Assembly (NCBI GenBank): GCA_963665325.3
Contig: OZ224045.1
Coordinates: 1,152,001-1,216,000 of the forward strand
DNA: 64,000 nt
DNA from: Alphaproteobacteria bacterium
GTDB taxonomy: Bacteria > Pseudomonadota > Alphaproteobacteria > Bin95
Direction of reading: 5' to 3'
Part shown: in pieces, positions 29,456-45,677 of the stretch
How the letters are laid out: every line of letters starts with the position of its first letter
Position numbering within the stretch: the first letter of the stretch is position 1
Made by a program: the position numbers and the translations under genes
Notes under the pieces: model-generated
The model's database searches: none
What the model saw: the letters and a program-made list of their open reading frames with translations, nothing else
What the model was told of the DNA's origin: nothing

Positions 29456-29531
29456 GCCGCAGTAGCTCAGCTGGTAGAGCAGCGCATTCGTAATGCGCGG
29501 GTCGGGAGTTCAAGTCTCTCCTGCGGCACCA
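29456..29531 (+). tRNA. tRNA-Thr(CGT)
   Basis: GCCGCAGTAGCTCAGCTGGTAGAGC-AGCGCATTCGTAATGCGC-...TTCAAGTCTCTCCTGCGGCACCA, 76 nt, anticodon CGT. Confidence 0.97.
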
Positions 29532-29668
29532 CCCCTCTTTCCCATAGCTGATCGCTGATCCTCATATATTATTGAAATAGCGCAGTATTTTTCTTTCTTG
29601 CATCTCACCGCCGAACACTGATATACGCTGATGCTCGGCATTTGGGGTGGTCTAAAAGGTGGCTTAAA

Positions 29669-30814
29669 ATGACGAAGAGTGCTGCACTCACACACGTGAA
29701 GGCCAAGTCGCTCAACAAAGGGAAATACGCTGACGGGCAAGGGCTCTGGCTCGTCAAGGCACGCAAGGATGCCGGTAGGTGGATGCTTCGTCTGTTGGTC
29801 AAGGGTAAACGGCGAGAAATGGGCCTCGGCAGATATCCCGATGTCTCCATTGCGGAGGCTCGGGAAAATGCCCGACAGGCGCGAACAATCCTCCGCTCCG
29901 GTCTCGATCCGATCAAGGAGCGGCAAAGACAACGGACGGGTCGTCTCTCCGTCCGTGATGCCGTGCATGGCTGTTTCAGTGCCAGACAGGCGGAACTCAA
30001 ACAGGACGGCAAGGCGGGACGCTGGCTCTCCCCTCTGGAAGTGCATGTCCTTCCTCGGGTCGGCGACATGTGCATTGAGGACATTGACCAGCATGACCTT
30101 GTCCGAGTCCTCCAAAGTATCTGGCACGACAAGTCTGATACTGCTCGAAAAGCTCTGAACCGACTGAACCTTACCCTACGCCATGCGGCCGCCCTTGGGC
30201 TCGATGTTGACCTGCAAGCGGTCATGAAGGCACGGGCTTTGCTCGGCAAGCAGCGGCACGAAGTCATTCATATTCCGTCTCTGCCATACCACGAGGTGCC
30301 GGCATTTTACCGTTGGCTGTGCACCAAATCGATGACTGCTCCACTCGCGCTCCGTTTCCTGATTCTCACGGTCGCACGGACAAGCGAAATCCGTTTCGCT
30401 ACCTTCGATGAAATCAAGGGGAACGTCTGGCACCTGCCGTCCAAGAGAACAAAGACCGGTAGGGAACACCGTATTCCGCTCTCGGAGGAAACACAGGTTG
30501 TTATCGCTCAGGCACGACATATGGATGACCAGGAACTGCTTTTCCCCACGTATCGCGGCAAACCGATGTCGGATGCCGCCATGTCACGGTTCATGGAACG
30601 GGAGGGCTATACCGCCAGACCGCACGGCTTTCGGGCAACCTTCCGCACCTGGGTGGAGGAGGCAACCGATACGCCTTTTGAGGTCAAGGAGAGTGCCTTG
30701 GGGCATCAGGTGGACGATGGCGTTGTTCGCGCCTATCAGCGCTCCGATCGTCTTGAAAAACGTCAGCACCTGATGGAGCAATGGGCTCGGTTCCTAACCT
30801 CGCCGGTCTCCTGA
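29669..30814 (+). CDS. P4-like tyrosine integrase with arm-binding domain
   Basis: DGQGLWL and REMGLGRYPDVSIAEAR arm domain; catalytic R(ARTSE), K(TKTG), HGFR, LGH, Y(RAY). Confidence 0.95.
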   Translation: MTKSAALTHVKAKSLNKGKYADGQGLWLVKARKDAGRWMLRLLVKGKRREMGLGRYPDVSIAEARENARQARTILRSGLDPIKERQRQRTGRLSVRDAVHGCFSARQAELKQDGKAGRWLSPLEVHVLPRVGDMCIEDIDQHDLVRVLQSIWHDKSDTARKALNRLNLTLRHAAALGLDVDLQAVMKARALLGKQRHEVIHIPSLPYHEVPAFYRWLCTKSMTAPLALRFLILTVARTSEIRFATFDEIKGNVWHLPSKRTKTGREHRIPLSEETQVVIAQARHMDDQELLFPTYRGKPMSDAAMSRFMEREGYTARPHGFRATFRTWVEEATDTPFEVKESALGHQVDDGVVRAYQRSDRLEKRQHLMEQWARFLTSPVS

Positions 30815-30940
30815 TTCCCGACAAGCAGGATTGAGCGGCGGTATCATGCTGCCCGCGGCACAGCACACCATGATGGTCGGCAGGAACATGCACCAGAGCA
30901 TGTTGCTCCGTTCATTCCCACAACCGAGAAGGAAACCATC

Positions 30941-31246
30941 ATGGCTGCCCCGAATGTGACCGTACGGATATCGAGCACCTTTCTGACCCACTACTTCGGT
31001 AAGGGGCTTACCGACGAGCTCTACGCGATTGAACGCTACAAGACGACGATAGATGGCGAGATTCGCCGTCTTTCGAAGGGGCGGCAGGTAGACTGTCTGG
31101 CGCTCTCCCTCGCGGTCGTCCTTGAACTGCGGCCGGCAAGGAACGAGATAATCATATGCACGGGCAAGCGGCGTCGGGGTGGTATCCAATATTGGGGTGA
31201 CCTAGCGACGGGGCTTTTTGCCGAAGGCAAGCGGAAGCGGCAGTGA
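30941..31246 (+). CDS. hypothetical protein
   Basis: AAGGA RBS plus ATG; stop overlaps the next gene (GTGA). Confidence 0.55.
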   Translation: MAAPNVTVRISSTFLTHYFGKGLTDELYAIERYKTTIDGEIRRLSKGRQVDCLALSLAVVLELRPARNEIIICTGKRRRGGIQYWGDLATGLFAEGKRKRQ

Positions 31247-31860
31247 TGTTGGTCATTCCGTTCCCGACGAAACGACGGAGACGACCACACCGTCCAGGTA
31301 TCCGAGCTCTCTTTGCCATGCGACGTGCCGCAGGGCTCTGTCCTGAATGCGGCACGGCTCCACCAGAGAAAGGGTATCCCCTTTGTGCCACGTGTCTCGC
31401 CATCCGGCGACACCTACAGAAAATGGATATGCGTGATCGGACCGCCCTTAGGCGCAAGAAGGGCCTCTGCACTCGCTGTGGCAATAATCCTCCCGAGCCA
31501 GATATCGACAGCTGCCTAGCATGTGCTACGAGGGATCGCGCAAAAGCATTGCGTAATTACCGCCGTAGTTCAGCCATGCGCAAAGCGAGCCGCCTCTGTG
31601 TCCGGTGCGGTAAGAGACCGCCGGAGCGGGGAACGGATGACTGCGGGCAGTGTCGCGATCAACAACGACACCTCCGTCATCGCGCCATTCCATGTTTTCC
31701 CACCCGGTACACCGTCATCGAGCGACGGACCGGTGAGGATCATGGAACCTGGGAGAGCCTTGCCGAGGTTGCTGCCGCTCTGGCATATGCGAAGCTCTCG
31801 GCTGCTGACGTAGAGATCTTCACGGATGCCTCGCCCGCATATCCGCTCACCCTGCACTAG
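31243..31860 (+). CDS. Cys-rich repeat protein (three CxxC...CxxC units; putative zinc-binding)
   Basis: GLCPECG...CATC, GLCTRCG...CLAC, RLCVRCG...CGQC. Confidence 0.7.
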   Translation: MMLVIPFPTKRRRRPHRPGIRALFAMRRAAGLCPECGTAPPEKGYPLCATCLAIRRHLQKMDMRDRTALRRKKGLCTRCGNNPPEPDIDSCLACATRDRAKALRNYRRSSAMRKASRLCVRCGKRPPERGTDDCGQCRDQQRHLRHRAIPCFPTRYTVIERRTGEDHGTWESLAEVAAALAYAKLSAADVEIFTDASPAYPLTLH

Positions 31861-33075
31861 CAAGACTTATGTCCTAATGACCACCTTTGGGGGTGACACC
31901 GTGCGTGTCGCCCCATCATTTTGATAACGAATTATTTCCAAGGCGATCTTGCCTATTCGACATATATATAGAAAAGGGGCAACGGACGAATCCGTTGCCC
32001 CCGGAGGAGGAAAAGTGCGTGGTCCAAGAAGATACAAAGCATTTCAGCACCAGAGATGAACCACTCTGACCGACTAGGAAAGGACACAGACCGGTGAGAA
32101 TAACACTCCCCACTGGGAAATCCAACCACGTTGCCCGCACAGGGTGCGCAGGCACTCACAATTCCTCCCACCACAACAGGATGTCCTAAAGCCGTATTGG
32201 AGTCAAGCCGCAGGTCCGAACTGAGAATCGACAGTGAACGGGTATGACCACCACCGTACCAGTGCTCGACCAACGTCAGGGCTCATCCCCCATGCCGGTC
32301 ACACTGCATCTTCCTTACCTGTCTCGTCATCGCCAGCTCCCCATGCATATTGCTCAATATTATTATTGACTCCGGCGTCGTACTCTGCCAGCCTCCTGTC
32401 GTTCAGCACCAGAACTGAATCAGAGAATGACAGAATAGGAAAGGAAACCAACTATGCTGGTATAGCCAAGGTCAACCACTTACCGGTGGTGCTGACCTTC
32501 ATTCGCGGAGCCTTGCCGATCGGGAGGTTCCGCGAACACTTGTCCACGAACTCCGAATTACCCGTCATGTCGACCGCCTCACCCGAGGCGGCAACCCTAT
32601 ACTCAGAAACTACGACCATGGAGAAACACCATGACTGACTTCAAAATGCTAGCCTTACCTCTTTTCTGCCCCCTGACGTCGCCTGTCATTTGTATGACGA
32701 GCTCACACCGAAGGAATAGATGGCGATGGCGTCATTAACAGTATATTGCCGCCAGTGCTTGAGAACTTGGTGTGCTGAGGCATTACCTGATATAATTCGC
32801 CAATGCAACAGAGAACACTGCCCTCGACAGGCACCTGATAGCAAACAGTTTGATGCAAAGGCAGCGCTCTCTTTATTGGGTTCATTTGGCGCCCGAACAA
32901 CGGGTTATAAGATGTCCGCTCTAATTCATTACCTCGAGTAACTACAATCGTATAGAAAACACCATAATCTCTTCGCCTTGACTAACTCACCGTTGATCCC
33001 TTTTCATTTCCTGCAAAATGTCATTCAACTACCGACCATAATGAGACGCTGGATTCACGTCAACCTATTACAGAC

Positions 33076-33417
33076 TTGGTCAATCCCAATATTGATGAAC
33101 AAGAACAAGCACCTTATGAATTCATAAGAACATTCACAGTGGGTGCGACTGGAGACGATGTAAAGATATTGCAGAGATATTTGAATAACTTTGGATTTAT
33201 CGTCTCAGAGGTAGGATGGGGCTCACCAGGAAATGAGAGCACGTACTTCGGAATCAAGACAAAGCGGGCACTTGCACAGTACCAAGCCCACTACCACGAA
33301 GACATCCTCCTACCACTTGGTTTGAGTTATGGAACAGGTTATTTTGGCAAGAGCACAATCGCACATATAAATGGAAAAATTGTTGAAAAGCAGCTGAGTA
33401 TGCTGTTGACCAAATAG
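33076..33417 (+). CDS. peptidoglycan-binding domain protein (possibly a 5'-truncated fragment)
   Basis: GATGDDVKILQRYLN...YFGIKTKRALAQYQ...GYFGKST; frame open from 32986 without an ATG. Confidence 0.7.
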   Translation: MVNPNIDEQEQAPYEFIRTFTVGATGDDVKILQRYLNNFGFIVSEVGWGSPGNESTYFGIKTKRALAQYQAHYHEDILLPLGLSYGTGYFGKSTIAHINGKIVEKQLSMLLTK

Positions 33418-33480
33418 GGCATTTGGCGATTGAAAGTCGTTCCAGCAATTCCAACATACTGGCCATTCTTCCTTCCGATT

Positions 33481-34974
33481 TCAAAAATATCGTTCAAACA
33501 AGCACGATATTGGTTTTGGCACTTCAAAAGTTTGATTTGTAACTCGGTTTGGGAGGCCAGAAAAGACACTACCGCCTTTCTGAGCCTGACAAACCCAATC
33601 GTGTGGCTTGAAATAAGGAGTTTTCCCGATTACTGTCCGGTTCGAAAACGTGTTTTCAATCAGTATACGCTTTTCTGTGGGATCAAGTGTTTCGTATAGT
33701 AATGAAAGGCGTTTTGTGAGTTCGATAAAGTGTTTGAGATGATGGGAGAGGATGTTGGGATTTGGAAGCTGGTGGAGTTGTTCCTTTAGTTCTGTAAGTG
33801 TAGTTATCGTTTCATGTTTTTTTGTTAGATATGTTTGATTGTCAAGTGTTCCATCCACGAGTAGATCGGTGATACGTTCAAGTCGTTTCTCTTCTGCATG
33901 TATTCGTAGTTTCAAGGAGTGTTGTTGATGTTTCTGCTCAAGCTCGATACACGCGGCATTCCAGTTGCTTTCCATTTGGTCGCAAGCGTCCTTGGTAAAC
34001 TCGTACATTCGTAGTGCAGAAGTGATGTGTTCGTCCAAAACTTCTTCACGCAATGTCTTGGTCGGACAGTTGCGTCCATGACAGCGGTAATAAACATGTC
34101 CTTTCTGCAACTCGGGTGTCATAGGAAGTTTGCAAAGCCCGCAACGAAATAGACCACGAAACACATGGTGGTGCTTAGTCTTCTTGGGACCATACTTGCC
34201 AGCCTTGATGTCTTGTACTCGCTTGAACAGAGAAACGGGAATGATTGGTTCATGTATTCCTTGGTAAGTTTCACCGCATCCTCGCAAGAAAATGACTCCG
34301 GTATAGAAAGGGTTGCGAAGCATGGTCTCAATTCCACACATACTGAGAGGACGACCGTTCTGGTTTCTGAAGCCCTGCCGGTGTATCTCTTCGCGCAGAC
34401 TCCGTAGTGAGTGCTGGCCGGTGGCATACAACTCGAAGGCTTGTCTGACAAGCTGTGCTGTCGTCGGGCATGGTGTCTTCGCCTGTCCTTTCCCGTTGTC
34501 CAGATATCCCAAAGGTGCTCGGAAGGGATACAACCCCTGCTTTAGGCGGCCTCGGATACCCTTCCTGGTCTCCTCACGGAGGTTGCGGATATAGTCGGCG
34601 GCAATGACAGCGAGCATGTCAGCCGTGAGCCGTCCTCCCCGGGTAGTGAAGTCAAGACTTTCGGTCGCGACGTAGACGTCTATTCCCTGGTCGGGAAGCT
34701 CGGAGACAATCGACCAATCCTTGAGGTTCCTGGCGGAGCGGTCAATCTTGTGCATGATGAGACCTGTCGCCGCCCCCTTTCGCAGCTGTCGGAGCATGTT
34801 GTTGAAGACTGGCCTGCCGCTCTTTGCAGCAGTTTCTTTTTCTTCAAACCATTTCGTGACGTACAGCTCATTTTTTTGAGCAAAGGAGACAATAGCGTCC
34901 TTCTGCTCCTGCAAGGATACCCCCTCCCCTTGCTTCACTGTACTGACCCTAATGTATCCGTAACAAGTTTTCAT
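33481..34974 (-). CDS. large serine recombinase (resolvase + recombinase + zinc ribbon)
   Basis: YIRVST catalytic Ser, DRSAR, PLGY, NPFYTG, HEPII, CGLC...YYRC. Confidence 0.93.
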   Translation of the reverse strand: MKTCYGYIRVSTVKQGEGVSLQEQKDAIVSFAQKNELYVTKWFEEKETAAKSGRPVFNNMLRQLRKGAATGLIMHKIDRSARNLKDWSIVSELPDQGIDVYVATESLDFTTRGGRLTADMLAVIAADYIRNLREETRKGIRGRLKQGLYPFRAPLGYLDNGKGQAKTPCPTTAQLVRQAFELYATGQHSLRSLREEIHRQGFRNQNGRPLSMCGIETMLRNPFYTGVIFLRGCGETYQGIHEPIIPVSLFKRVQDIKAGKYGPKKTKHHHVFRGLFRCGLCKLPMTPELQKGHVYYRCHGRNCPTKTLREEVLDEHITSALRMYEFTKDACDQMESNWNAACIELEQKHQQHSLKLRIHAEEKRLERITDLLVDGTLDNQTYLTKKHETITTLTELKEQLHQLPNPNILSHHLKHFIELTKRLSLLYETLDPTEKRILIENTFSNRTVIGKTPYFKPHDWVCQAQKGGSVFSGLPNRVTNQTFEVPKPISCLFERYF

Positions 34975-35176: not shown

Positions 35177-36346
35177 TCACTCCCGTCCAGGGGGAGGCAA
35201 GGTAGTCATGGTGAATGGTCGGCTCGGCTCGCCGTCGATCATCATGCGGATGAAGGCGTGATGGTTGTGCAGGTTCACCAGGTCCCGCGCTTCGCCGTAG
35301 TCAAGCTGCGCGGCGAGGAGCGGTGCGTCAGAGGCGCCGACCCTGAAGCAAATCATGGTACCGACATTCCCCATGATTGAGGCAAGGACCGTATCGCGGT
35401 TCTGTTTCGTGTGTTGCTGACTGAGGACGACGCCGAGGCAATATTTTCTTGTCTCCGAGAGCAGGTCGGCAAGGGTCTCGGTCGTGAAGGAATGAAACTC
35501 GTCGACGTAGAGGAAGAAGGCACGCCGATTCCCCTCGGGCACGTCGTGTCGGGTGAACGCGGCGTTTGTCATCGCGGACACCAGCAATCCGCCGAGGACG
35601 TTGGTAATGTCGCCCCCGATACGTCCCTTGGCGAGATTGACGATGAGTGTCTGCCCTTCGTCCATGATCCTACGGAACCGCAGCGGTTCCTTCGGCTCGC
35701 AGAGTGCGGTACGGACCACGGGATGGGCGAGGAACGCTCCGAGCTTGTTGGCGATCGGGGCCAATCCGTCCGCTGCCTTCTTGTAGTTCATCGCCGGATA
35801 TTCCCTGATCCAGAACTGCTTGACCTGTGGGTCCGCGATATGAGCGATGGTCTGCTTCCTGAAGGCGCTGTCGAGGAAGAGGCGCAGAATATCGCGAAGG
35901 TCGGTGCTGGGGGTATCGAGCAGTGCCAGGATGGCGTGGCGCAGCAAGTGCTCCATGCGCACGCCCCAGGCATCCGTCCACTGCTTGCGCAAGGTTTCGA
36001 TCAATCCGGAGGCGATGAGCGGTCGGAGTGCTGGCGAGGTCCGCGTCAGCGGGTTGTAACCGTACGGGCTGTTTGGATCGGCAATATCCCATGAAATGGC
36101 AGTGTCGGCACAACGCTCGGAGAGAGCGTCAGCAAGATCGCCATGCGGATCGATGAGAGCGAACCCTGTCCCGTGTTCGGCGTCCTGCACCGCCATATTC
36201 AAAAGCAGGGTGGATTTCCCCGTGCCGGTCTGACCGATGATATAGGTGTGCATGAAGCGGTCGTGCTCCCGAAGACCGAACGGCACCATGCCCTGCCGGT
36301 CATTCGCCCGGCCGAGTATGAGAAGTGGGTTGTTTGCACTTGCCAT
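35177..36346 (-). CDS. VirD4/TrwB-like coupling ATPase (HerA/DUF87-type), no TM anchor
   Basis: HTYIIGQTGTGKS, LIDPHGD, VNLAKGRIG, LYVDEFH, ETRKY, FRVG. Confidence 0.88.
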   Translation of the reverse strand: MASANNPLLILGRANDRQGMVPFGLREHDRFMHTYIIGQTGTGKSTLLLNMAVQDAEHGTGFALIDPHGDLADALSERCADTAISWDIADPNSPYGYNPLTRTSPALRPLIASGLIETLRKQWTDAWGVRMEHLLRHAILALLDTPSTDLRDILRLFLDSAFRKQTIAHIADPQVKQFWIREYPAMNYKKAADGLAPIANKLGAFLAHPVVRTALCEPKEPLRFRRIMDEGQTLIVNLAKGRIGGDITNVLGGLLVSAMTNAAFTRHDVPEGNRRAFFLYVDEFHSFTTETLADLLSETRKYCLGVVLSQQHTKQNRDTVLASIMGNVGTMICFRVGASDAPLLAAQLDYGEARDLVNLHNHHAFIRMMIDGEPSRPFTMTTLPPPGRE

Positions 36347-36797: not shown

Positions 36798-37154
36798 ATG
36801 CTCAAAGAATTTCTCTACGACCTGAAGTCCGCCAGAAAGCGTGCCGGTCTCACGCAATCCGATTGCGGCCACCTCGTCGGTGTCTCCAACAACGTCATCT
36901 CCCAGATTGAACTCGGACAGCGCCTTCCGACCGTGCGGGAGCTCTGCGCTCTCTCCGTCATTTACAATCAGCGCTTCGACAGTCTGTACACCGCCATTCT
37001 GCGCCGTGTATGCAGTGACGTTGCGGTAAAGCTCGCGTCATTGCCGGAAGCGCCCCACACTTGGCTCATCCGTCACGGACAGAGACGGACGCGGACGCTT
37101 GCTCGGCTGACGAAGACCTTACAAGCCGATTCCCTTAAGACGATATGCGGGTAG
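36798..37154 (+). CDS. XRE-family helix-turn-helix protein
   Basis: RKRAGLTQSDCGHLVGVSNNVISQIELGQRLP. Confidence 0.85.
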   Translation: MLKEFLYDLKSARKRAGLTQSDCGHLVGVSNNVISQIELGQRLPTVRELCALSVIYNQRFDSLYTAILRRVCSDVAVKLASLPEAPHTWLIRHGQRRTRTLARLTKTLQADSLKTICG

Positions 37155-37636
37155 GCAGTCAGCGTGTGCTCTCCGTCGCCACACGCACCGAGCGGGTTGG
37201 CTGCGTCGTCATGGAAGATGGCGACCTGATGTTCTGGCAAGGAGCCGCGAACGCCGGCAGAGACCCGATGGAGGCTGGTGCCCGGCTTGCCCGCTGGGTC
37301 CGCGACTACCGCCCCGACATCATCGTCTCTCAGGACCCCAACGCGCCCGGCAGGAAGCACGGCACTCAGGTCGATATCCTCCGGGCATTTGCCCGTGTCG
37401 CGGGCGAAGCTGTGGCGGTCAACCTTGTCGTGCGACGCGAGCATCCCTTTGAAAATGTATATGTCGAAGCGCAACATCTGGCAGCGCAGTTTCCGGACTT
37501 GCAGGACATGACACCGGAGAAACCTCCGATCTGGCGCAAGGAACCATACCGTCTGGTGTTCTTCGAGGCCCTGGCGCTGGTGCGGGACGCGGGTCTGCTC
37601 GCGCCATTCTCGCAGATGCCCGAGGACGACCGGTAG
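37145..37636 (+). CDS. hypothetical protein, possibly a degenerate RuvC/RNase H-like fold
   Basis: RVLSVATRTERVGCVVMEDG three-strand start and YRPDIIVSQD resemble the RuvC pattern, with the acidic residues altered. Confidence 0.55.
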   Translation: MRVGSQRVLSVATRTERVGCVVMEDGDLMFWQGAANAGRDPMEAGARLARWVRDYRPDIIVSQDPNAPGRKHGTQVDILRAFARVAGEAVAVNLVVRREHPFENVYVEAQHLAAQFPDLQDMTPEKPPIWRKEPYRLVFFEALALVRDAGLLAPFSQMPEDDR

Positions 37637-37784
37637 CCAACCGGTTCGTTTGATTGTTGCGTAGTGCCGTCGTGGCATCGACGTCTGTGCGCATGCGCTT
37701 GCGTGCCCGCCGGCGAGGCAATGGCGATATTGCCTTGCGCGCGGTCATGTGCTTGGCTCCATGTTGCAAACACGCCTTGGACTT

Positions 37785-37945
37785 CCCGCTCTGTCGGGTC
37801 GTCCGCTGAATAGAAGAGCCTGATACCCGGCAAGGGGTAGCTCCCCGCGCTTGGCGAATAAGCGGAAACCTCCTGATTCCAGGGTGTGTTTGCAACGGCC
37901 CGACGCCAGCCGGCGTCGAGCTACGCAACCGACTGGAGGAAGACC
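37785..37945 (+). promoter_or_regulatory. conserved structured 161-nt leader, copy 1
   Basis: Homologous to 44109-44269; contains the GGGG-TAGCT-CCCC hairpin and the GGAGG RBS. Confidence 0.75.
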
Positions 37946-38848
37946 ATGTTCAACCGCTTCGCCATTACCACCGCCATCGCCTTTGCGCTTGCCGCCTGTG
38001 GAGGCGGCGGGTCGGGAGGCAGTCCGAAAACCACCATGAACGACGAGAGTAAGACCGGAAATACGCCCATGGCGGAAAGGCCAGCCCCGCAAGCCGTAAG
38101 GACCTTAGGTGAAAACGAACTGCTAATCGGCAGGGCTAGTAGGTCTCAGCATGTAGTGGGCTCGGAGTATATCAGAAAGCCGATTCCCGCTGGGGTTACG
38201 TGGGTAACGGCGACTGAATATCGCGTATACGATGTTGTCAATAGGAGTTACAGCCCTCAAGCAGCAGAGGAAGATGGACTGCTTAGCCAGTCCTTCTATT
38301 ACGGTCATTGGTCAGACAGAAATATGATGCTGTATTTCGGCGGTTGGCAATACGATCCGCTGACGATAAGGCGGATAGCTCGTTTCAACGTCAGCCTAGG
38401 GAATGATGAAATCATAGGGTCGGTTTCTGGCGTTCAGCCACTAACAAAATTTGCAGACAGTCCCCGCATCCAATCTCAGAAGATGGTGAATTACGGCGGG
38501 ACTCTTGTTGGTTTTACCACAAGCAACAAACAGCCTTTGGGAGCAGAAGTAAGCATCCAACTCAACTTAGGAAACGACGTGACAGGCACATTTGATCTCG
38601 CCGGGCTCTCCACAATTGAACGCGATGGCTCTCTGAAACCCTTTCTTGGGGGGAACCTCCACCATGACATTGCTGTCACCGGCAATACCTTCACTACAAC
38701 GGGCGGTGACCCTGGAACCGTAACAGGCTTCTTTGCCGGTGAGACTCACCAAGCCGCAGCAGGAACAGTCCAGCATTCCGCTTTCACCGGCGCTTTCGGT
38801 GCCGAACCTTTTGGCTCCTCGGAACCAACGGCGCGAGCGCCGAATTGA
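37946..38848 (+). CDS. surface lipoprotein with TbpB-like C-terminal beta-barrel
   Basis: Lipobox LAAC-GGGGSGG; C-terminal VTGFFAGETHQAAAGTV...GAFGA. Confidence 0.75.
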   Translation: MFNRFAITTAIAFALAACGGGGSGGSPKTTMNDESKTGNTPMAERPAPQAVRTLGENELLIGRASRSQHVVGSEYIRKPIPAGVTWVTATEYRVYDVVNRSYSPQAAEEDGLLSQSFYYGHWSDRNMMLYFGGWQYDPLTIRRIARFNVSLGNDEIIGSVSGVQPLTKFADSPRIQSQKMVNYGGTLVGFTTSNKQPLGAEVSIQLNLGNDVTGTFDLAGLSTIERDGSLKPFLGGNLHHDIAVTGNTFTTTGGDPGTVTGFFAGETHQAAAGTVQHSAFTGAFGAEPFGSSEPTARAPN

Positions 38849-39061
38849 CAGCCTCCGATAGTTATGGCGAGGCCATCAACGACACTCGTATTCGCAGCAC
38901 CGGTGGTGTCAGCGGAACGCTCCTCGCCCGCCTTTACGGAAACGACCATGAACAAATCGCAGGCTCAATCGAGCGTGAAGACCTCATAGCAGCGACTCCC
39001 GCTCAAGCCCAAGGGTAGTCGCGTAAGCGAGCTAATGTCGCAAAGCAGCGTTCAGGGTTGG

Positions 39062-40024
39062 TCATACCCGACCGATCCTGAACGCCGACAATTCTGCCCT
39101 GAGCCAGTCGCCCTCCAGCAGATCAAGGTCGGGCATCGGTGGTGAGAATACCGTGCCGAATACCTCCCATGACCGAAACAGCATCCGCGAGCGCACCGAT
39201 GGTGCGTACTGCTCAACCAGCGGGAGGAGTTGTGCGAGGCGTGCTTCGTCGTTGACAACCGTCAAGACTAGCATCGGTGCACGGAGCCGGAGGTGGTCGC
39301 GGTAGCGGTTGCCTCCGAGATAGTTTTCATATTGCAAGAGCGAGCGCCGCCAGCTCTTTCTGTTGAAATTTGCCGACACGGCTGGTTCGGTTGCGCGATC
39401 GGCCTCAACAAGAAAGCAGCGATACCGACTGCCCTCGGGTGTCTTGTACTCCAGGCCGAAGAGCGCGTCGGGAACAAGGTCGATGCAACGCGTCTGCCCC
39501 TCGTCGTGGATATGCACCGGAGCGCGAAGCGCGACATCGGCGCGACCGAGAAGAAACGACTGCGAGAGGAACGCGAGGTCATCCCGTCCCCTCACCGCCG
39601 CTTCAATCGACGCGGTGATGCAGGCGACCATGCAGGCATGCAGCCACGGACCGTTCGTTGCCGGACGATGCAGATACCAGTACCCCGCGTCACTGAGCGC
39701 TTGCTCTGAGGCTGGCGTGAGATCGTAGACCAACTGCTTGTAGCGGCTGTCGAGCGTGCGGAACTGTTGTGGCGGCCGGGAGAGGTAGGCGCTGCCGTGC
39801 GGTGTGTTCTCCTCGTTGAAGAGATCCGTGAGTCGCTCTTTCGCGCGTTTCCCGCTTTTGTGCGTGTCCTTGGCGAGTGCCAGAAGAAACGACGATGGGA
39901 GCGGTCCATGCTCGTAGAGTTTTTGAAACCATAGAAGGTCGCGGTCCGTCGGTGTAACCCGCTTGCCGCTCGATATGCGATGCGCGCGCTTGCGCCGTCC
40001 GATGGCGTCGTGCTGTTCGCTCAT
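39062..40024 (-). CDS. replication-relaxation (Replic_Relax) family protein
   Basis: N-terminal HTH-like TDRDLLWFQKL, YDLT, WLH, PDALFGL...FLVEADRATEP (PD-(D/E)xK-like); directly after a coupling-protein gene. Confidence 0.85.
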   Translation of the reverse strand: MSEQHDAIGRRKRAHRISSGKRVTPTDRDLLWFQKLYEHGPLPSSFLLALAKDTHKSGKRAKERLTDLFNEENTPHGSAYLSRPPQQFRTLDSRYKQLVYDLTPASEQALSDAGYWYLHRPATNGPWLHACMVACITASIEAAVRGRDDLAFLSQSFLLGRADVALRAPVHIHDEGQTRCIDLVPDALFGLEYKTPEGSRYRCFLVEADRATEPAVSANFNRKSWRRSLLQYENYLGGNRYRDHLRLRAPMLVLTVVNDEARLAQLLPLVEQYAPSVRSRMLFRSWEVFGTVFSPPMPDLDLLEGDWLRAELSAFRIGRV

Positions 40025-40025
40025 C

Positions 40026-42245
40026 TCAGAGCTCAAAGCCGGCGTCGGTCCCGCTCTCGTCTTGAGGACGCCGTTTGTTCGACCGGTTGCTCTTGCCAGT
40101 CGGTGTTTCCATGGACGGGGCCGGTGTCTCGTCCTGTCCGCCATTCCGGTGCCTGCGCCGCCTGCCTCGGCGCTGTTCTTGTCTCGGTTCGTCCTTCTGT
40201 TCAACCGTTTCGGAGGCCATTGGCCCTCGCGTTTGGAACTGCTGATCAATGACGGAGTGGTGCTCCGCGTAGCGCTTGCGCATGCTCGACCGCAGGCCGT
40301 CTCTCTCCTTCGGAGTCATTCTCGGTTGCCGTTCAAGCGCGCCGAGGGGGAACCGGAGCGGCACCGCCGTTCTTGTCGTGCCCCGCAGATGTGCGGCGAA
40401 GCAACCCTTGGGCTGTCGTTCAATGAAGTCCGGGTCGCAGGAGAGCATCGATGCAAGTGCGCGAGCGTCCTTGGCGGAGACGCCACCGGCGAACTTTATG
40501 GACGTATTGGCAGCGAAGGCGTCCTGCAAACGTGGCTCAAGCTGTCCGAGGTACTGGTGCGCCAGCACCATACCCACCTTGTACTTGCGCGCCTGGGCGA
40601 GGATGATGCCGATGTTGCGGTCGAAATAGTCGGCTGCCTCGTCGATATAGACAAATGTGGGCAGCCGTTCCCGTTCCGGCAGGGTCGCCCGCTCCTGTGC
40701 CGCTTGGGCGATGAGCGCGATAAAGAAGCGCCCGAATATCTCGGTGCCCTGTTCCTTGAGCAAATCCTTGGCGGTGTTGATGAGGATAACCTTGCCGGCG
40801 TTCATCTCGTTGAAGAGGTCGAGCTTCGAGCGTGGCGAAGAGAACATCCGATCGAAGGTCTGATTCTCGAGAATACCCCAGAGCCGGCGCAGTATCTGCT
40901 TTTTGGTCAGGTCGAACTCGCGCGAGGAAAATTCGGTCTCGAAGAAGTGCCGCGCGGAGCCCGTGAGCGTGGCAATGTGCTCGGCGAACTGCACATGGCC
41001 GTTTGGTTCCATAAGTTGACGGAGGGTATGGATGGTGGCGTTCGGCACCACGAGCATGAGTCGGGTGACGTAGCGGAATACCACATTCTGCTTCTGCGTC
41101 ATTTCGGCGGAAAGGAGCGACCCGAGCACGAAATCGTAGAGCTCCAGAATGGAATTAGTCAGTCGTTCTCGTTCAAGCGGCGCGTAGCCGGTAAGGCGGT
41201 CAAGGCCCGCGTCAAAGAGATTGAGCGATACCGGATACTCGACATCGCTCGGATCGATCAGCACGATTCGGTCGTGCAATGCTCCGCCAGGGGCAAACAC
41301 CGCGAGGCCGGCGATGGTCTCGATGAGGTCGCCCTGACTGTCGAGGACAATCACGGAGCGCTTCCCTGCCGCCACCGCCTCAAGGTCGCAGCCAACAAGG
41401 TACTGCAAGGTCTGGGTTTTGCCGTGTCCGCTGCCGGCAACGATATGGTGGTGCTCAAAGCGCGCGTCGGTCGGTAGCGGGAAGTCGATCTGCTGCGTGA
41501 AGAAATCAACAAGCGGCGTGCCACCAAGATAGGTGTCGAGAAGCTCCGCCGGATCGCTGAGTAACGATCTTGACGGTAGCTTCGGTGCACGGGAGAGTGC
41601 CTTCGCATTGTCGGGATTGCCTCCCGATGCGGCAATCGCGTTTCGCTCCAGACGACCGCGCAGCCGATTGCCTACGTCGGCGCGGACCAGCTCCTCGTCA
41701 AAGAATGCCGAGCAGGCGTTCTCCGTCATGGCGCCGGCACGGTCGAGATTGTTGACGAGATCGGTGGCGACGGTGATGTCCGTGTCGCTTGGCGCCTCCG
41801 CGAGGAGCGCAGGACAGGCGTGAAAGATCGGGGAGAGGAACCCCACGACCGCCTGTTGCAGCACCGCTCTCGCCTGCGGAAGGTTTCTGACAAGCGCGAG
41901 TTGGTAGTTGAGCGCGTCGCGCACTTCCCACCACTCAGCCACCGTGCGCTTCGTACACCAGTCGATGTCGGGAAGCCGGAACATAGATTCATAGTTGAAC
42001 AGTCGGGTTACCAGAATGGCGATCGGCTCAGCCTGGCGATGCTCGGCACTCAATCCGAAGGCGCTGAGCACATCGACGACAACATCCACAATGAGCCGGT
42101 CGCGCCCATGCGCTTCGATAAGGTCATGCTTTCTGAACAATCGACGCGCACGGTCTGCAAGCGCCCGTGCTTCATCCTCGTCATCGTACCAGAAGAGGCC
42201 ATGCGTGAAGGCGTGCCATCGGGGACCGAGGTGGAGGCGAAGCAT
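40026..42245 (-). CDS. VirD4/TraD-like type IV coupling ATPase with long N-terminal extension
   Basis: HHHIVAGSGHGKT, VLDSQGD, VYIDEA, AQARKYKVGMVLAHQYLGQ. Confidence 0.88.
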   Translation of the reverse strand: MLRLHLGPRWHAFTHGLFWYDDEDEARALADRARRLFRKHDLIEAHGRDRLIVDVVVDVLSAFGLSAEHRQAEPIAILVTRLFNYESMFRLPDIDWCTKRTVAEWWEVRDALNYQLALVRNLPQARAVLQQAVVGFLSPIFHACPALLAEAPSDTDITVATDLVNNLDRAGAMTENACSAFFDEELVRADVGNRLRGRLERNAIAASGGNPDNAKALSRAPKLPSRSLLSDPAELLDTYLGGTPLVDFFTQQIDFPLPTDARFEHHHIVAGSGHGKTQTLQYLVGCDLEAVAAGKRSVIVLDSQGDLIETIAGLAVFAPGGALHDRIVLIDPSDVEYPVSLNLFDAGLDRLTGYAPLERERLTNSILELYDFVLGSLLSAEMTQKQNVVFRYVTRLMLVVPNATIHTLRQLMEPNGHVQFAEHIATLTGSARHFFETEFSSREFDLTKKQILRRLWGILENQTFDRMFSSPRSKLDLFNEMNAGKVILINTAKDLLKEQGTEIFGRFFIALIAQAAQERATLPERERLPTFVYIDEAADYFDRNIGIILAQARKYKVGMVLAHQYLGQLEPRLQDAFAANTSIKFAGGVSAKDARALASMLSCDPDFIERQPKGCFAAHLRGTTRTAVPLRFPLGALERQPRMTPKERDGLRSSMRKRYAEHHSVIDQQFQTRGPMASETVEQKDEPRQEQRRGRRRRHRNGGQDETPAPSMETPTGKSNRSNKRRPQDESGTDAGFEL

Positions 42246-42254
42246 CTGAATGCC

Positions 42255-42761
42255 TCAGAGCACAAACCGTCGAGCTTCCTCGACCGGAAGCGGACGAACC
42301 TTACGTTGCTCGGTACCGCCCCAGTGCTTTGCACTCTCAAGCAGTTGGCGGAGATAGCCGGCGGCATTCTCCAGCCATGCCTCTTTGCGAATGAGCTCGA
42401 CGACACTGACGCAGGAGAAGTATCGACCGTGGAGCAAATCCTTGACCAGAATTGTCTCTCGCTTCTCGGTGAAATACCAGAAAGCGCCGCCGCCTCCCGC
42501 AAACACGCTCAAAAGAAATGCCAGCACCATACCCAACCCCATCGCGAGAAGAGCGAATACGATGAGAAAGATCGCGACCCCTGCGATGACGGTGTTTCTG
42601 AACAAGTGTTCCTGTTCCGCCTGAATCATGACCGCGTTGTCGAGTCGGTAGCGCTTGAGCAATTCCTTCTCCTCGTCATCCAGCTCAATCTTGCCCCATA
42701 ACTTGAATCGTACTCTTCTCAGTCTTCCAAGGGTTTGTTCCCGTTTGAATAGCAGTTCCAT
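42255..42761 (-). CDS. hypothetical two-TM membrane protein, first gene of the mobilisation operon
   Basis: AAGGAAG RBS; hydrophobic hairpin IAGVAIFLIVFALLAMGLGMVLAFLLSVFAGG. Confidence 0.75.
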   Translation of the reverse strand: MELLFKREQTLGRLRRVRFKLWGKIELDDEEKELLKRYRLDNAVMIQAEQEHLFRNTVIAGVAIFLIVFALLAMGLGMVLAFLLSVFAGGGGAFWYFTEKRETILVKDLLHGRYFSCVSVVELIRKEAWLENAAGYLRQLLESAKHWGGTEQRKVRPLPVEEARRFVL

Positions 42762-43104
42762 TTCTTCTTCCTTTTCTGTCTCTCTGCTATTCCCGTTCTC
42801 TCTCAATGTGACCGTAGGGAACATTGGGAGAGGGGAGAGGGCGAGGGGTGGGGTTTGGGGTAGCTATGCATGAACCCGCCCAGGGTTCATTCTCTTTGGA
42901 GGAGGAAAGAGAATGAAGTCGCGGAAAGCGGCGGAGACGCGGGGGCATGGAATGTGTCGCTCTGGATGGGGATATGGTCGGCAGGGTCATGGGGATACAG
43001 GAAGTCCTTGGGCGTGTCCCCATCGGGAGGGCTCGCGGGTTTAGCATGATTGGATAGAGAGATGGGCGGCCGGGTGTGTGCACGCCCGACCGCCCTGCTC
43101 CCAT

Positions 43105-43302
43105 TCAGGAGTGTCGGGCAGGAGTTTCGCGACGGTCCATCCTGGACTGGAGCCAGTCGAGCACCTCCTCCTCTACCCATCCCACGCGGTTCTCGCCGAG
43201 CTTGACCCGCTTGGGGAATCTGCCCGCCTTTTCCAGCCGTGCGATGTGCTGCGGTGAGTACAAGACCAACTCCTTCAGCTGGCGTTTTGAAAGTATCCTC
43301 AT
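43105..43302 (-). CDS. AlpA-family regulator / excisionase
   Basis: RLEKAGRFPKRVKLGENRVGWVEEEV; typical partner of P4-like integrases. Confidence 0.9.
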   Translation of the reverse strand: MRILSKRQLKELVLYSPQHIARLEKAGRFPKRVKLGENRVGWVEEEVLDWLQSRMDRRETPARHS

Positions 43303-43402
43303 CTCGATGCCTCCGTGAGTGGAGAGCATCGCGATGCCCCAGGGTTGACAATGACCTAGGTGGCGCGATGGTAGCGGCAATCTGGAGTACGGAAAAGCGC
43401 CC

Positions 43403-44017
43403 ATGTCCGCACAGACAGTCGTTGCAGAAACGAGACGAAGGGCAACCTACCAGGATGTGCTCAATGCGCCGCCGCACAAGGTGGCCGAGGTTGTTGAGGG
43501 AGTGCTCTACACCAACCCGAGACCGGCACCACGACATGCGATAGCCAGTTCCGGAATTGGCGCAAGCATTTCACCTCCTTTCAACTACGGACGCGGCGGC
43601 CCTGGTGGCTGGTGGATCATCGATGAGCCGGAACTGCATCTCGATGAAGATATATTGGTGCCCGACCTCGCAGGCTGGCGGCGGGAGCGTATGTCGGCGA
43701 TCCCCGCCACCGCGTATTTCACGCTTGCTCCGGACTGGGTGTGCGAAGTGCTCTCGCCCTCCACTCGAGCGCTCGACCAGGGACGGAAACGGGCACTCTA
43801 TGCCCGCGAAGGGGTAGGCTATCTGTGGTTCGTCGATCCCGACGCCCGCACGCTTGAAGCGTTTGAGCTGAACGACCGCCGCTGGGTGTTGCTTGAGACA
43901 CTGACGGGCGATGCCACGGTCTCGCTGCCGCCGTTCGAGGCGATCCAATTCAGCCTCAGTGACCTCTGGGTCGATATAGAGTCGGAGCAGGACACCGGTC
44001 GGGACGGAACCGTCTAG
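43403..44017 (+). CDS. Uma2 family endonuclease
   Basis: ATYQD, EPELHL, PDLAGW, PDWVCEVLSPST, K..LYA. Confidence 0.92.
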   Translation: MSAQTVVAETRRRATYQDVLNAPPHKVAEVVEGVLYTNPRPAPRHAIASSGIGASISPPFNYGRGGPGGWWIIDEPELHLDEDILVPDLAGWRRERMSAIPATAYFTLAPDWVCEVLSPSTRALDQGRKRALYAREGVGYLWFVDPDARTLEAFELNDRRWVLLETLTGDATVSLPPFEAIQFSLSDLWVDIESEQDTGRDGTV

Positions 44018-44108
44018 CCTGATCGGTCCCCTCATGGACGGCCCTCAGCACACTGCTTGACTCATTCTTTGCCCGCTTTTACCGTCATATCTGCGACGTT
44101 CACACAGA

Positions 44109-44269
44109 CCCGCTCTGTCGGGTCGCCCGCTGAATATAACAGCCTGATACCCAGCACGGGGTAGCTCCCCATGCGTGGTGAATAGGCGGGACTTCACATC
44201 TGTTCTGTGTGACGTCGCAACGGCCCGGCGCCAGCCGGTGCGGGTCACGCAACCGACTGGAGAGGGATC
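44109..44269 (+). promoter_or_regulatory. conserved structured 161-nt leader, copy 2
   Basis: Homologous to 37785-37945; GACCCG-CTCTGT-CGGGTC and GGGG-TAGCT-CCCC hairpins. Confidence 0.75.
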
Positions 44270-45250
44270 ATGTTCAACCGCTTCACTATTGCTGCCGCCG
44301 TCATCCTTGCGCTTGCCGCCTGCGGAGGCGGCGGTTCAGCAGTTGTTGGGCCGGTTGGCTCCAAGATGGAATCTGAATCCAGCTCAGGCACCAACAGTGT
44401 GCTATCCAAGTACCATCGCCATCTAAACGACGGAGATTCAAATGACGCATGGCCTGAAGTCGGAGACTACACCCATATCTTTCATTTCCTCGTTGGCGAA
44501 TCCATCGGTGATGGATTATTTGCCATAGCTCCATCAAATGTTTCGTGTCAGGAAGAGAGTTGTTGGGCTTCCGAAGCAGCGGCTAATTCGCTAGGGTCGG
44601 TTGCGGGAGTTCAACGTGTTATGGAGCATGCCAATATCCCCGTGTATCGAATACACGGAGAGAATACCTTTGCGGGGTTCGACTACAACACCTACGGAGC
44701 GTGGCTCGAATTCTCATCGTTCACCGTTGCGCGCACCTGTGACATCGGCGAAGATTGCGGCTTACGCGCCGCCTTCGACAGTGCCATACCAGCCGTTGGC
44801 GGCCAGCCGTCTGGATCCAAACCGAGAGGGCTAGGGTCGGCCTCTTGGCTCGGTGTCGTGATTGCCGCCGATACGCAAACTTACAATCTCATCCTCGGTG
44901 ACGCGGAGATAAGTATTAACGACCTAACTGCAGTCACTCCTCTTGTGGATGTCACACTGACTAGGCTGTGGGATGTCGATGCCGGTATCGCACGCGCCGA
45001 CATTCGATGGCATGGCCTTCCCATTAGTGATAGCAGTCAAACCATCAATGTGCCTGTAGTCAACGCTTCGCCGGCTGGTGCGTTTGGGCGTGGCCACATC
45101 CCGTTTCCCTACTCCGGTGTAGTCACCCACGACGGACGCGATGACTACGTAATGGGACAGTTCTTCGGCAATGCGCATCAGGAGGTAAGCGGAAAATTCG
45201 TACATCGAGCCACATCCACGGCAGGAGTGTTCGGCGGGAAACGTCAATGA
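44270..45250 (+). CDS. surface lipoprotein with TbpB-like C-terminal beta-barrel
   Basis: Lipobox LAAC-GGGGS; YGAWLE, ASWLG, MGQFFGNAHQEVSGKF...GVFGGKR. Confidence 0.78.
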   Translation: MFNRFTIAAAVILALAACGGGGSAVVGPVGSKMESESSSGTNSVLSKYHRHLNDGDSNDAWPEVGDYTHIFHFLVGESIGDGLFAIAPSNVSCQEESCWASEAAANSLGSVAGVQRVMEHANIPVYRIHGENTFAGFDYNTYGAWLEFSSFTVARTCDIGEDCGLRAAFDSAIPAVGGQPSGSKPRGLGSASWLGVVIAADTQTYNLILGDAEISINDLTAVTPLVDVTLTRLWDVDAGIARADIRWHGLPISDSSQTINVPVVNASPAGAFGRGHIPFPYSGVVTHDGRDDYVMGQFFGNAHQEVSGKFVHRATSTAGVFGGKRQ

Positions 45251-45655
45251 GGCGACGCGCTTGCGAATGCTGATCGGCGAGCTGCCGACGACGTGCCAGT
45301 TCGTCTGGTGGACCGAGTCCGCGTTGCTGGTGAACGCTCAATGCCCCAAGCAGCATGCTAACGCCGCTAATGTCGGGGCAGGACGAGTTGCCACCACCAC
45401 CAACAAGGTGATTGACACTGTCTGCTCACGGAGGCATTAGCAGATACCGAACGGCGGACTGTCCAGACGAACCTCGCGGTCGGGGATAATCTGCTGCTTC
45501 GCCCCGTTCTCTGGAGGACGCATATCCTCCGGAGAACATTCTCTCGCAATACCATACTCCCTCACCGAGTCACCTTCTGGATGGGGGATAGAAAGGTGGA
45601 TAGATATTTGTCTAGAGACAAATTACCTACTAATAACAACATATTGTCACATGCG

Positions 45656-45677
45656 TCAAGTCTCTCCTGCGGCACCA
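45656..45677 (+). repeat. attR: duplicated 3' end of tRNA-Thr
   Basis: Exact match to 29510-29531. Confidence 0.95.

Follow-up and report, generated by a model that had tools for sequence, protein, structure and literature searches.

The window analyzed here is a 64,000-nucleotide stretch of alphaproteobacterial DNA (positions 1,152,001 to 1,216,000 of contig OZ224045.1, assembly GCA_963665325.3), which contains a genomic island of 16.1 kb between two 22-bp direct repeats, integrated at a tRNA-Thr gene. We found that the island is one member of a family of mobile elements, widespread in Alphaproteobacteria, that integrate at tRNA genes and lack a mating pore, and that the conserved backbone of this family, judged by its genes and their predicted structures, is most likely a mobilization module. 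In the reading that we prefer, and to which we assign a probability of about 0.5, the island is a mobilizable element with a MOBC-like relaxase, its own coupling protein in split form, a paired second motor, a co-traveling large serine recombinase (LSR) and slots for defense cargo.

An Island Bounded by a Perfect Repeat of the tRNA-Thr Gene

The 22-bp repeat, TCAAGTCTCTCCTGCGGCACCA, represents the last 22 bases of the tRNA-Thr(CGT) gene and recurs perfectly at positions 45656-45677. No further copy was present in the window with up to 3 mismatches allowed, and chance matches were found in 0 of 100 shuffles, which bears out the perfect attL and attR sites that had been proposed from inspection of the DNA alone (hereafter the sequence-only reading). 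The GC content was ~0.57 within the island and ~0.67 outside, with the lowest values, 0.42 to 0.46, in a patch at 32.5-34.5 kb.

The open reading frames (ORFs) of the island were scanned with Pfam, NCBIfam, PHROGs, and PADLOC, and none of them matched VirB or other mating-pair formation (MPF) families or phage structural families, as the sequence-only reading had stated. Its descriptions of an intact LSR and of a minus-strand operon for a membrane protein, an ATPase, and a Replic_Relax protein also held, with support from Pfam. Alignments of homologs indicated that the true start codons shorten the second ATPase to 389 amino acids (aa), the membrane protein to 168 aa, and the Replic_Relax protein to 320 aa. 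The backbone features, with the names used below, are located in the window as follows.

29456..29531, plus strand: tRNA-Thr(CGT), the integration target, with attL at its 3' end (ARAGORN; Rfam tRNA, 68.6 bits)
29510..29531: attL core, 22-bp direct repeat, perfect copy of the attR core
29642..30814, plus strand: int1, P4-type tyrosine integrase (Pfam Arm-DNA-bind_3, 2e-18; Phage_int_M; Phage_integrase)
33481..34974, minus strand: LSR, intact, 497 aa (Pfam Resolvase, 3.5e-30; Recombinase; Zn_ribbon_recom)
35177..36346, minus strand: ATP490, soluble ATPase of the TrwB fold, 389 aa from the corrected start (Pfam TrwB_AAD_bind)
36798..37154, plus strand: XRE-family helix-turn-helix (HTH) regulator, divergent from ATP490 (Pfam HTH_3, 6e-10)
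37145..37636, plus strand: orf163, conserved 163-aa protein (alignment of 19 homologs)
39062..40024, minus strand: RelRep, Replic_Relax protein (PF13814), 320 aa (Pfam, 38.4 bits, cut-off 25.3)
40026..42245, minus strand: ATP739, ATPase, 739 aa (Pfam TrwB_AAD_bind)
42255..42761, minus strand: mem, 168-aa membrane protein, first gene of the operon (alignment of homologs)
43105..43302, minus strand: AlpA-family excisionase/regulator, 66 aa (Pfam Phage_AlpA, 4.7e-10; phrog_2790)
45656..45677: attR core, 22-bp direct repeat, perfect copy of the attL core

A Conserved Backbone with a Patchy Distribution

A total of 80 loci from species-representative genomes were probed by tblastn with 18 proteins from the window, and seven identical duplicate contigs (L030-L036) were dropped from the locus counts. 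The recurring order in the probed loci was AlpA, variable slot, mem-ATP739-RelRep, (variable slot), orf163-XRE in divergent orientation, (DUF3768) ATP490-LSR, variable slot, and integrase. Across the 30 loci in which the ATP739 homolog had at least 50% identity and at least 8 kb of sequence was available on both flanks, a homolog of mem was identified in 29, the second ATPase in 20, AlpA in 20 (mostly 60% to 82% identical), XRE in 17, orf163 in 16, and the LSR in 14, while RelRep was found in at least 26, an undercount caused by the overlap filter. The pairing of XRE with orf163 was conserved in 16 to 17 loci, the LSR homologs (44% to 65% identical) adjoined the ATP490 homolog, and a second ATPase was located within 10 kb in 27 of the 38 loci with an ATP739 identity of at least 40%.

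The search for this gene order across genomes, which the sequence-only reading had suggested, thus recovered the same backbone with variable cargo: at least 13 other alphaproteobacterial genomes, from different orders, carry LSR, ATP490, XRE/orf163, RelRep, ATP739, mem, and AlpA in one and the same arrangement. In six sister loci, an ATP490-like gene is located directly upstream of mem, forming a four-gene operon behind the same cis-element (described below), which suggests that the two motors are functionally tied. The least constant part is the tyrosine integrase, which varies in type and position; three loci have an int1-like integrase at the LSR end, and seven have another P4-type integrase next to AlpA. 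A tRNA-Leu repeat of 17 bp surrounds the whole set in locus L019, LSR included, with the tRNA at the AlpA end. In locus L041, a tRNA-Thr gene adjoins AlpA, and no tyrosine integrase or direct repeat of at least 14 bp was found within 22 kb.

These patterns bear on an alternative raised in the sequence-only reading, according to which the island is a composite of a P4-type islet and a serine-recombinase element. If a P4-type integrase/AlpA islet had captured an unrelated element by chance, the recombinases and the ATPases would stem from different sources, and the two recombinase families in one island, the position of the LSR within the lowest-GC patch, and the variable tyrosine integrase would be accounted for. 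We found this alternative to be unsupported, because the backbone genes recur together while only the tyrosine integrase varies. The LSR, both ATPases, and AlpA keep their order in the loci from different orders, the ATPases are paralogs that share one operon in the six loci mentioned above, and the L019 repeat encloses the whole set with the LSR. The chance composite is already largely refuted by synteny, and we consider it very unlikely.

More than 2,226 homologs of ATP739 were identified, of which the best 120 were 59% to 74% identical and the named ones mostly belonged to Alphaproteobacteria. In the ATP739 alignment, identities were 55% to 69% across records from Sphingomonadales, Rhodobacterales, Hyphomicrobiales, and Rhodospirillales. 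The spread of the module is patchy: of 400 other alphaproteobacterial genomes sampled, 10 carried it, and it was absent from all 3 genomes of the same genus or family. In the host genome it is present in a single copy. Full-text searches of the literature did not turn up a description of the family; members might be listed in supplementary tables.

It was also noted that a DUF3768 gene is located just upstream of or beside the ATP490 homolog in L002, L015, L041, L073, and L077, which include distant relatives, and that L041 and L042 both have a gene for an exonuclease of the RNase_T type. Both may be further backbone genes, and both are absent from the window. Moreover, a 12,678-bp contig with the module was present in eight metagenome-assembled genomes (L029-L036) from one project, 100% identical in all of them. 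The contig begins with a sequence of ~30 nt, the reverse complement of which recurs ~50 nt from the other end. We considered and rejected a circular form of the element, given that a terminal direct overlap was lacking and that the genomes with the identical contig were labeled as different genera. The contig is either a binning artifact or a shared small replicon, and an artifact is more likely than a circular form.

Two Paralogous ATPases and a Small Membrane Protein

ATP490 and ATP739 are paralogs (BLASTP 1e-18; hhalign probability 99.8, E 1.8e-30), and PF10412 (TrwB_AAD_bind) was the sole coupling-type Pfam family above its cut-off in either of them. The Walker A and B motifs are GQTGTGKS and VDEF in ATP490 and GSGHGKT and IDEA in ATP739, and the Walker residues are invariant in the alignments of the homologs of both. 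Relative to ATP490, ATP739 has an additional N-terminal domain of 240 aa and a charged C-terminal tail.

The best match of the ATP490 profile to PDB sequences was TrwB (3.6e-11), followed by HerA (3.8e-5) and DotL (5.5e-5), with DptH also behind. The fold comparison covers the AlphaFold2 (AF2) model of ATP490 (pLDDT 90.6), to which ATP739 is linked by paralogy, and gave the following matches.

TrwB: Z 30.0, root-mean-square deviation (rmsd) 3.2, 346 of 389 residues aligned
DndH-C, a restriction-system domain: Z 29.0
VirB4: Z 28.8
DotL: Z 27.6
HerA: Z 21-24
FtsK: Z ~19

Both the nucleotide-binding domain with the Walker motifs and the all-alpha domain of coupling proteins were seen in the comparison with TrwB. 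Since the Z scores for TrwB and VirB4 exceed those for HerA, the ATPases appear to share the fold of coupling proteins and of VirB4, without the clustering with HerA families that the sequence-only reading had considered; the DndH-C score is, however, nearly as high as that for TrwB.

The mem protein contains a hydrophobic two-helix hairpin (Kyte-Doolittle peak 2.91), which is flanked by two conserved soluble domains. A complex prediction for mem (ORF residues 22-189) with full-length ATP739, run without controls, gave a score of 0.00 and speaks neither for nor against a contact. The role of ATP490 within the element is a guess, and the need for two ATPases is unexplained, as the sequence-only reading had remarked, but it is a recurrent trait of the family. 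The distant relatives L070, L072, L076, and L077 encode longer ATP739-like proteins (893-942 aa), and in none of them was a separate gene for a Replic_Relax protein found. A RelRep-like C-terminus in such fused ATPase forms was considered for one protein (L076) and discarded, as the hhalign probability of 0.3 was not significant.

A Replic_Relax Protein with a Relaxase-Like Architecture

The start of the RelRep gene overlaps the stop of the ATP739 gene (ATGA). In the AF2 model of the protein (pLDDT 90.5), residues 22-117 align to winged helix-turn-helix (wHTH) domains of the MarR/PadR type (Z 7.0-8.4), and residues 126-309 align, with a modest Z of 7.7, to the PaqCI nuclease (rmsd 4.0, 139 residues). 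Weak matches to restriction enzymes were also obtained with Foldseek. The residues D186, E207, D209, and K223, plus a Q231...Y235 motif, are invariant in the alignment of homologs. As modeled, RelRep consists of an N-terminal winged helix and a C-terminal PD-(D/E)XK nuclease domain, which is the architecture of MOBC relaxases.

The MOBC plan is described as a wHTH domain joined to a restriction-endonuclease-like catalytic domain, with binding repeats at a distance from the nick, and TraX is described in the same terms (PMC12857230). According to Coluzzi et al., proteins with PF13814 are called MOBC by CONJscan (PMC5357655). No match to PDB sequences was obtained with the RelRep profile at E <= 10.

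A Conserved cis-Element Upstream of the Operon

The operon is headed by a conserved noncoding element, which was delineated from an alignment of the DNA upstream of mem and has the following parts.

42870..43027, minus strand: whole element
42966-42974 and 42989-42997: TATCCCCAT-type repeats, direct
43014-43023: TATCCCCAT-type repeat, inverted
42914-42920: GACTTCA motif
42886-42897/42906-42917: hairpin with a 12-bp stem

The shared layout consists of two direct and one inverted TATCCCCAT-type repeats, a spacer, G(C/T)GACTTCA, and a hairpin that begins inside the motif. This element was present in 35 of the 49 loci examined, plus the window; in six loci, here called type B, it is located upstream of the ATP490-like gene instead. 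The exact pattern was found in 19 of 100 loci, with one copy per locus and always on the operon strand. A single copy was identified in the 5.58-Mb host genome, and the reversed control gave no matches.

A perfect Watson-Crick stem of at least 7 bp that starts at motif positions 3-9 was observed in 17 of 36 sequences, with 16 different arm sequences; 300 shuffles averaged 0.10 such sequences and never gave more than 1. Such diversity of the arms, combined with the rarity of stems in the shuffles, suggests that the stem is kept by compensatory change. RNAalifold found no consensus in the MAFFT alignment of the hairpin because the 3' arms were left unaligned by MAFFT, and that result is superseded by the anchor-based stem count.

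A distant copy on a Sulfitobacter plasmid lacks AlpA, and its RelRep is only 29% identical. This copy retains GTGACTTCA and the hairpin, while the repeats differ, as would be expected if the cut site is conserved and the specificity repeats track the DNA-binding protein. The element at 42870-43027 is a candidate for the origin of transfer (oriT), as judged from its sequence.

A Proposed Mechanism and the Evidence Weighed against It

The P4-type integrase, together with AlpA as excision factor or regulator, would recombine the 22-bp attL and attR sites and thereby excise the 16.1-kb element. RelRep would then bind the TATCCCCAT-type repeats and cut near the GACTTCA hairpin, the putative oriT, just upstream of the operon. 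ATP739, which has no anchor of its own, may be tethered to the membrane through mem, the two-helix protein co-transcribed with it, such that the pair would act as a split coupling protein and pass DNA to the type IV secretion system (T4SS) of a co-resident conjugative element. ATP490, the counterpart of which is encoded in the same operon in sister elements, is a probable partner of ATP739, for instance in a second ring or a hetero-oligomer. The LSR may provide a second route for integration or resolution. That the island is an unusual integrative mobilizable element (IME), as the sequence-only reading had put it, is the best-supported yet unproven account, and it draws on the Replic_Relax/MOBC-type protein, the coupling-type ATPase, the candidate oriT, the lack of MPF genes, and possible helpers in the host.

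Several observations weigh against it. All functions in this scheme (transfer, nicking, and excision) are inferred from sequence and structure prediction. No transmembrane segment was found in ATP739 or ATP490 (maximum 19-residue hydropathy of 1.50 and 1.44), so both lack the N-terminal anchor of coupling proteins. The NCBIfam models for TraD/VirD4 gave only 16-30 bits on the ATPases against cut-offs of 250-650, and PF02534 was matched by neither. The ATP739 profile did not retrieve any ATPase or coupling-protein chain from the PDB at E <= 1, the only match being XPF at E 0.11. For RelRep, the profile comparison with the Replic_Relax protein of plasmid pTEF1 gave an hhalign probability of 0.1 and thus no significant similarity. 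Searches of six-frame segments of CloDF13 with HMMER profiles of RelRep, ATP739, and ATP490 also yielded no match, which is a weak test because the mob region of the PLSDB record is broken into short ORFs and looks frameshifted. A homolog was detected in only 1 of 72,556 plasmids in PLSDB, and that plasmid is typed as non-mobilizable by MOB-suite. The cis-element could equally well be an operator or an iteron-type replication origin. Finally, the PADLOC defense model mad8 matches both ATP490 (1.4e-17) and ATP739 (8.2e-8), and DndH-C, which is tied with TrwB in the fold comparison, shows that the same fold serves the restriction system DndH.

The last two observations point to an alternative in which mem-ATP739-RelRep and ATP490 constitute an anti-phage or anti-plasmid system that rides on integrase/AlpA islands, in the manner of MAD7/MAD8 of MADS, DndFGH, or HerA-nuclease systems. 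MAD7/MAD8 is described as an ATPase-nuclease module (PMC13662399), and with both MADS and DndFGH the island shares the ATPase fold, the profile similarity, and an ATPase that is paired with a nuclease; the restriction-endonuclease fold of RelRep and the lack of VirB4 enrichment among carriers (see below) are also consistent with a defense role. Furthermore, the neighbors in sister loci are overwhelmingly defense systems. A Pfam scan of 176 ORFs from 15 sister loci identified type I and type II restriction-modification systems, Gabija-like OLD/UvrD pairs, a Thoeris-type TIR protein, Nmad2/MazG_C/UDG genes, SMODS/AGS_C genes, nSTAND3, and SMC-like ATPases.

These variable, mostly anti-phage systems occupy fixed slots between the backbone genes. 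The module itself is the invariant frame that they fill, with fixed positions relative to AlpA and a dedicated cis-element, and thus behaves as the backbone of the element with its own cis-site. The identity of ATP739 across four orders is unlike that of fast-evolving defense genes. Among 16 island proteins, PADLOC detected only mad8 and HerA (both for the ATPases), generic HTH models, and PDC-S03 (Uma2), and no other component of MADS (methyltransferase, kinase, MAD1-7) or Dnd (DndF/G). In addition, the wHTH domain of RelRep looks sequence-specific, and the repeats co-vary with RelRep in the distant plasmid copy. On balance, we regard a defense function of the backbone as unlikely.

Potential Helpers in the Host and in Other Carriers

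If the island is mobilized by a helper, the host offers several candidates. The genome (five contigs, C1 to C5, 5.58 Mb, 100% complete) contains seven VirB4-like ORFs with E values of 1e-50 to 1e-60, which is below the curated cut-off, while PF03135 had no match in it. Six of the seven are located ~14 kb from an ORF of the TraG/VirD4 family, and the seventh is on C2. The VirB4-like/TraG-like pairs are located at the following positions.

C1:515451/529413
C1:589185/603262
C3:1035495/1049648
C4:53745/67904
C4:847055/833250
C5:27576/14108

The six pairs indicate that the host genome holds many similar conjugative elements. Other carriers are not enriched for helpers, since a VirB4-like match (TIGR00929, E <= 1e-30) was found in 3 of 10 of them and in 105 of 400 genomes in the whole sample. 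This is neutral to negative for a strict dependence on helpers and counts against the mobilization scheme to that extent. Hitchers commonly reside without helpers.

The 7 of 10 sampled carriers that lack a VirB4-like match would be explained if the backbone served T4SS-independent DNA export, by donor-side "pushing" akin to TdtA-mediated transjugation, or the replication and segregation of the excised circle, with RelRep as an iteron-binding initiator and the ring ATPases as translocases. No MPF or mating-pore genes were detected by Pfam among the 176 ORFs of the 15 sister loci, which suggests a stably pore-less lineage; the cis-element resembles iterons with a hairpin; and the name of the Pfam family refers in part to plasmid replication (PMC3424549). 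A precedent for export is ICEth1 of Thermus thermophilus, which is described as an element of 14 kb inserted in a tRNA gene that encodes an integrase, nucleases, and a membrane-associated ATPase that forms hexamers, but no mating pore (PMC5365140).

Set against this, Pfam identified neither NurA nor a type II restriction enzyme of the ICEth1 kind in the island, nor a primase, helicase, or partition gene in the backbone, and the closest solved folds to the ATPases are those of T4SS ATPases. To our knowledge, Proteobacteria offer no precedent for crossing a diderm envelope in the absence of a pore. Export or maintenance as the function of the backbone is in our view improbable. In a more specific proposal, the two anchor-less TrwB-fold ATPases, mem as a membrane adaptor, and the Replic_Relax nuclease would suffice for DNA donation independently of a pore, acting at the GACTTCA hairpin as an alphaproteobacterial counterpart of Thermus transjugation, and would disseminate islands loaded with defense genes with no need for a conjugative helper. 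This would explain both the stably MPF-less lineage and the lack of a VirB4 gene in most carriers; we hold it to be slightly less probable still.

Comparison with Known Systems

A match of the island to an already described IME family, which the sequence-only reading had also considered, was found in part: the core architecture, with its own coupling protein, a PF13814/MOBC relaxase, and a serine recombinase, has been described for the streptococcal IME_Class_8 and resembles CloDF13/pAD1 (PMC5357655, PMC5704250). MobC/MobB of CloDF13 and TraX of pAD1/pTEF1 likewise combine a relaxase of wHTH and restriction-endonuclease fold with an adjacent coupling-type ATPase of ~740 aa (PMC12857230, PMC5704250). 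In pTEF1, which is pAD1-like and typed as MOBC by MOB-suite, the local order is the same, with a 737-aa coupling protein, a small ORF, and a "replication-relaxation family protein" that belongs to the same Pfam family, PF13814, with 28.5 bits as compared to 38.4 bits for RelRep. The binding repeats of TraX are reported to lie tens of bases from the cut site (PMC12857230), and the repeats in the island are ~45-110 bp from the hairpin. Direct sequence similarity between the pTEF1 or CloDF13 proteins and those of the island was undetectable. Unlike CloDF13/pAD1, the island encodes an ATPase without its own membrane anchor alongside a separate small membrane protein, adds a second paralogous ATPase, and is chromosomal and tRNA-integrated, with alphaproteobacterial hosts. 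The pAD1-type plasmids also have their own mating genes, unlike the island.

The island shares with IME_Class_8 the integrated state, the lack of mating-pore genes and, by gene type, a serine recombinase, a protein of the PF13814/MOBC relaxase class, and a coupling protein of the VirD4 type, according to the description of that class, in which two examples from Firmicutes are given, each with a compact block of coupling protein, relaxase, (excisionase), and integrase (PMC5357655). In the island, the LSR is instead located 4 kb away, beside the second ATPase and the XRE/orf163 pair; the tRNA att sites are defined by a tyrosine integrase with AlpA; and the cargo slots are large. A review from 2017 gives no example outside Streptococcus of an IME that combines a MobC relaxase with a VirD4 coupling protein of its own, and reports that no canonical IME with its own relaxase and no coupling protein was known in Proteobacteria (PMC5704250).

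The similarities to ICEth1/TdtA include a size of ~14-16 kb, insertion at the 3' end of a tRNA gene, direct repeats, an integrase, and a ring-ATPase operon with one or more nucleases and no mating pore, as far as described (PMC5365140). TdtA is described as HerA/FtsK-like, whereas the island ATPases are closest to TrwB/VirB4, a distinction that is drawn from the description of TdtA rather than from its sequence. The nucleases also differ, with NurA and a type II enzyme reported for ICEth1 versus Replic_Relax in the island, and the Thermus system is reported to depend on the competence of the recipient. Like P4-like satellites and other defense-carrying islands with cargo hot spots, the island has AlpA and an integrase of the P4 type at a tRNA gene, and in its relatives varying anti-phage systems fill fixed slots. 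The reading as a phage satellite was nevertheless rejected, since primase-helicase genes and genes for capsid hijacking (capsid-size and psu-type) were not found with Pfam and PHROGs, and the backbone consists of a transfer-type module.

For most genomic islands no means of transfer is known, and this family provides a defined and widespread test case, with a pore-less conserved backbone and a precise candidate cis-site. Through its cargo slots, systems of the restriction-modification, Gabija-like, Thoeris-TIR, CBASS-like, and STAND kinds travel from one order to another. If the MOBC-like reading holds, mobilization by a relaxase with its own coupling protein would extend to chromosomal elements of Proteobacteria, a clade would have been missed by the standard typing tools, and a coupling protein split into a soluble motor and a membrane adaptor, with a paired second motor, would become experimentally approachable. 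If it is wrong, the same genes would define a new defense module or a pore-independent route of DNA export.

Recombinases and Putative Regulators

The P4-like integrase and AlpA named in the sequence-only reading were both identified by Pfam, with AlpA at the end opposite to the integrase and not beside it. The match of int1 to NF007246 (4.7e-37) was under the model cut-off, and its start codon is likely the ATG at position 29669. The LSR carries the N-terminal motif YIRVSTVKQ, and its role within the element may be no more than guessed at present.

We noted that the Rfam family RF02649, "Ruegeria trans44 sRNA", has a full-length match on the minus strand at 43073-43336 (193 bits, gathering score 108). 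The match coincides with the AlpA coding sequence plus short untranslated regions, and this small RNA family therefore looks like the AlpA mRNA of the element family.

The second soluble ATPase and its XRE neighbor were confirmed as described in the sequence-only reading, while the RuvC-like nature that it had ascribed to orf163 is only a lead. No Pfam family was matched by orf163, and in the ESM Atlas one cluster, at rank 15 with a score of 0.92, had 20% RuvC members. The site that we take to be that of the first catalytic Asp of RuvC is Ala or Ser in the orf163 alignment.

Cargo of the Island

The cargo genes of the window copy are all located on the plus strand of the slots listed here.

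30941..33417, plus strand: cargo slot 3, which contains the lowest-GC patch
30941-31246 and 32234-32638: predicted ORFs of slot 3 without family matches
31243-31860: predicted ORF of slot 3, Cys-rich and zinc-ribbon-like
33076-33417: PG_binding_1 protein of slot 3
37946..38848, plus strand: cargo slot 2, lipoprotein with the lipobox LAAC
43403..45250, plus strand: cargo next to attR
43403-44017: Uma2 (PD-(D/E)XK) nuclease (PADLOC PDC-S03, 3e-17)
44270-45250: second lipoprotein, with weak C-terminal matches to TbpB_B_D / slam_lipo below the cut-offs

The AlpA-proximal slot is almost empty in the window copy, which holds the Uma2 nuclease, the PG-binding protein, and the two lipoprotein genes instead. 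A duplication of ~230 bp (37785-38018 and 44109-44342, 82% to 88% identity) gives both lipoprotein genes one upstream/promoter region and signal peptide (MFNRF...LAACGGGGS), and the rest of the genes has diverged. The C-termini of both proteins weakly resemble TbpB/Slam-dependent surface lipoproteins, and locus L053 has TbpB_B_D lipoproteins in the slot that corresponds to cargo slot 2. The Slam translocon family PF04575 had 15 matches in the host genome (e.g., C2:191994-192878 and C3:705641-706498) and none in 14 control genomes, an unusual expansion that fits the lipoprotein cargo of the island.

Flanking Regions

A full-length dnaA gene (DnaA_N, Bac_DnaA, Bac_DnaA_C) is located at 28048-29409, immediately 5' of the tRNA-Thr gene, so that the island adjoins dnaA. 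Sampled sequence words from positions 38000-46000 were present at 58% to 100% in five DNA runs of one organism, and no RNA runs with these words were listed. To the right of attR (45651-49576), the GC content is still ~0.60 across a gene for a Na/Pi-cotransporter, which is followed by two tandem genes for P4-type tyrosine integrases (47211-48383 and 48380-49576), and this stretch may represent a further island or what is left of one. Farther into the right flank, the minus strand carries a DDE_Tnp_1_4 transposase gene of an insertion sequence element at 53049-54437.

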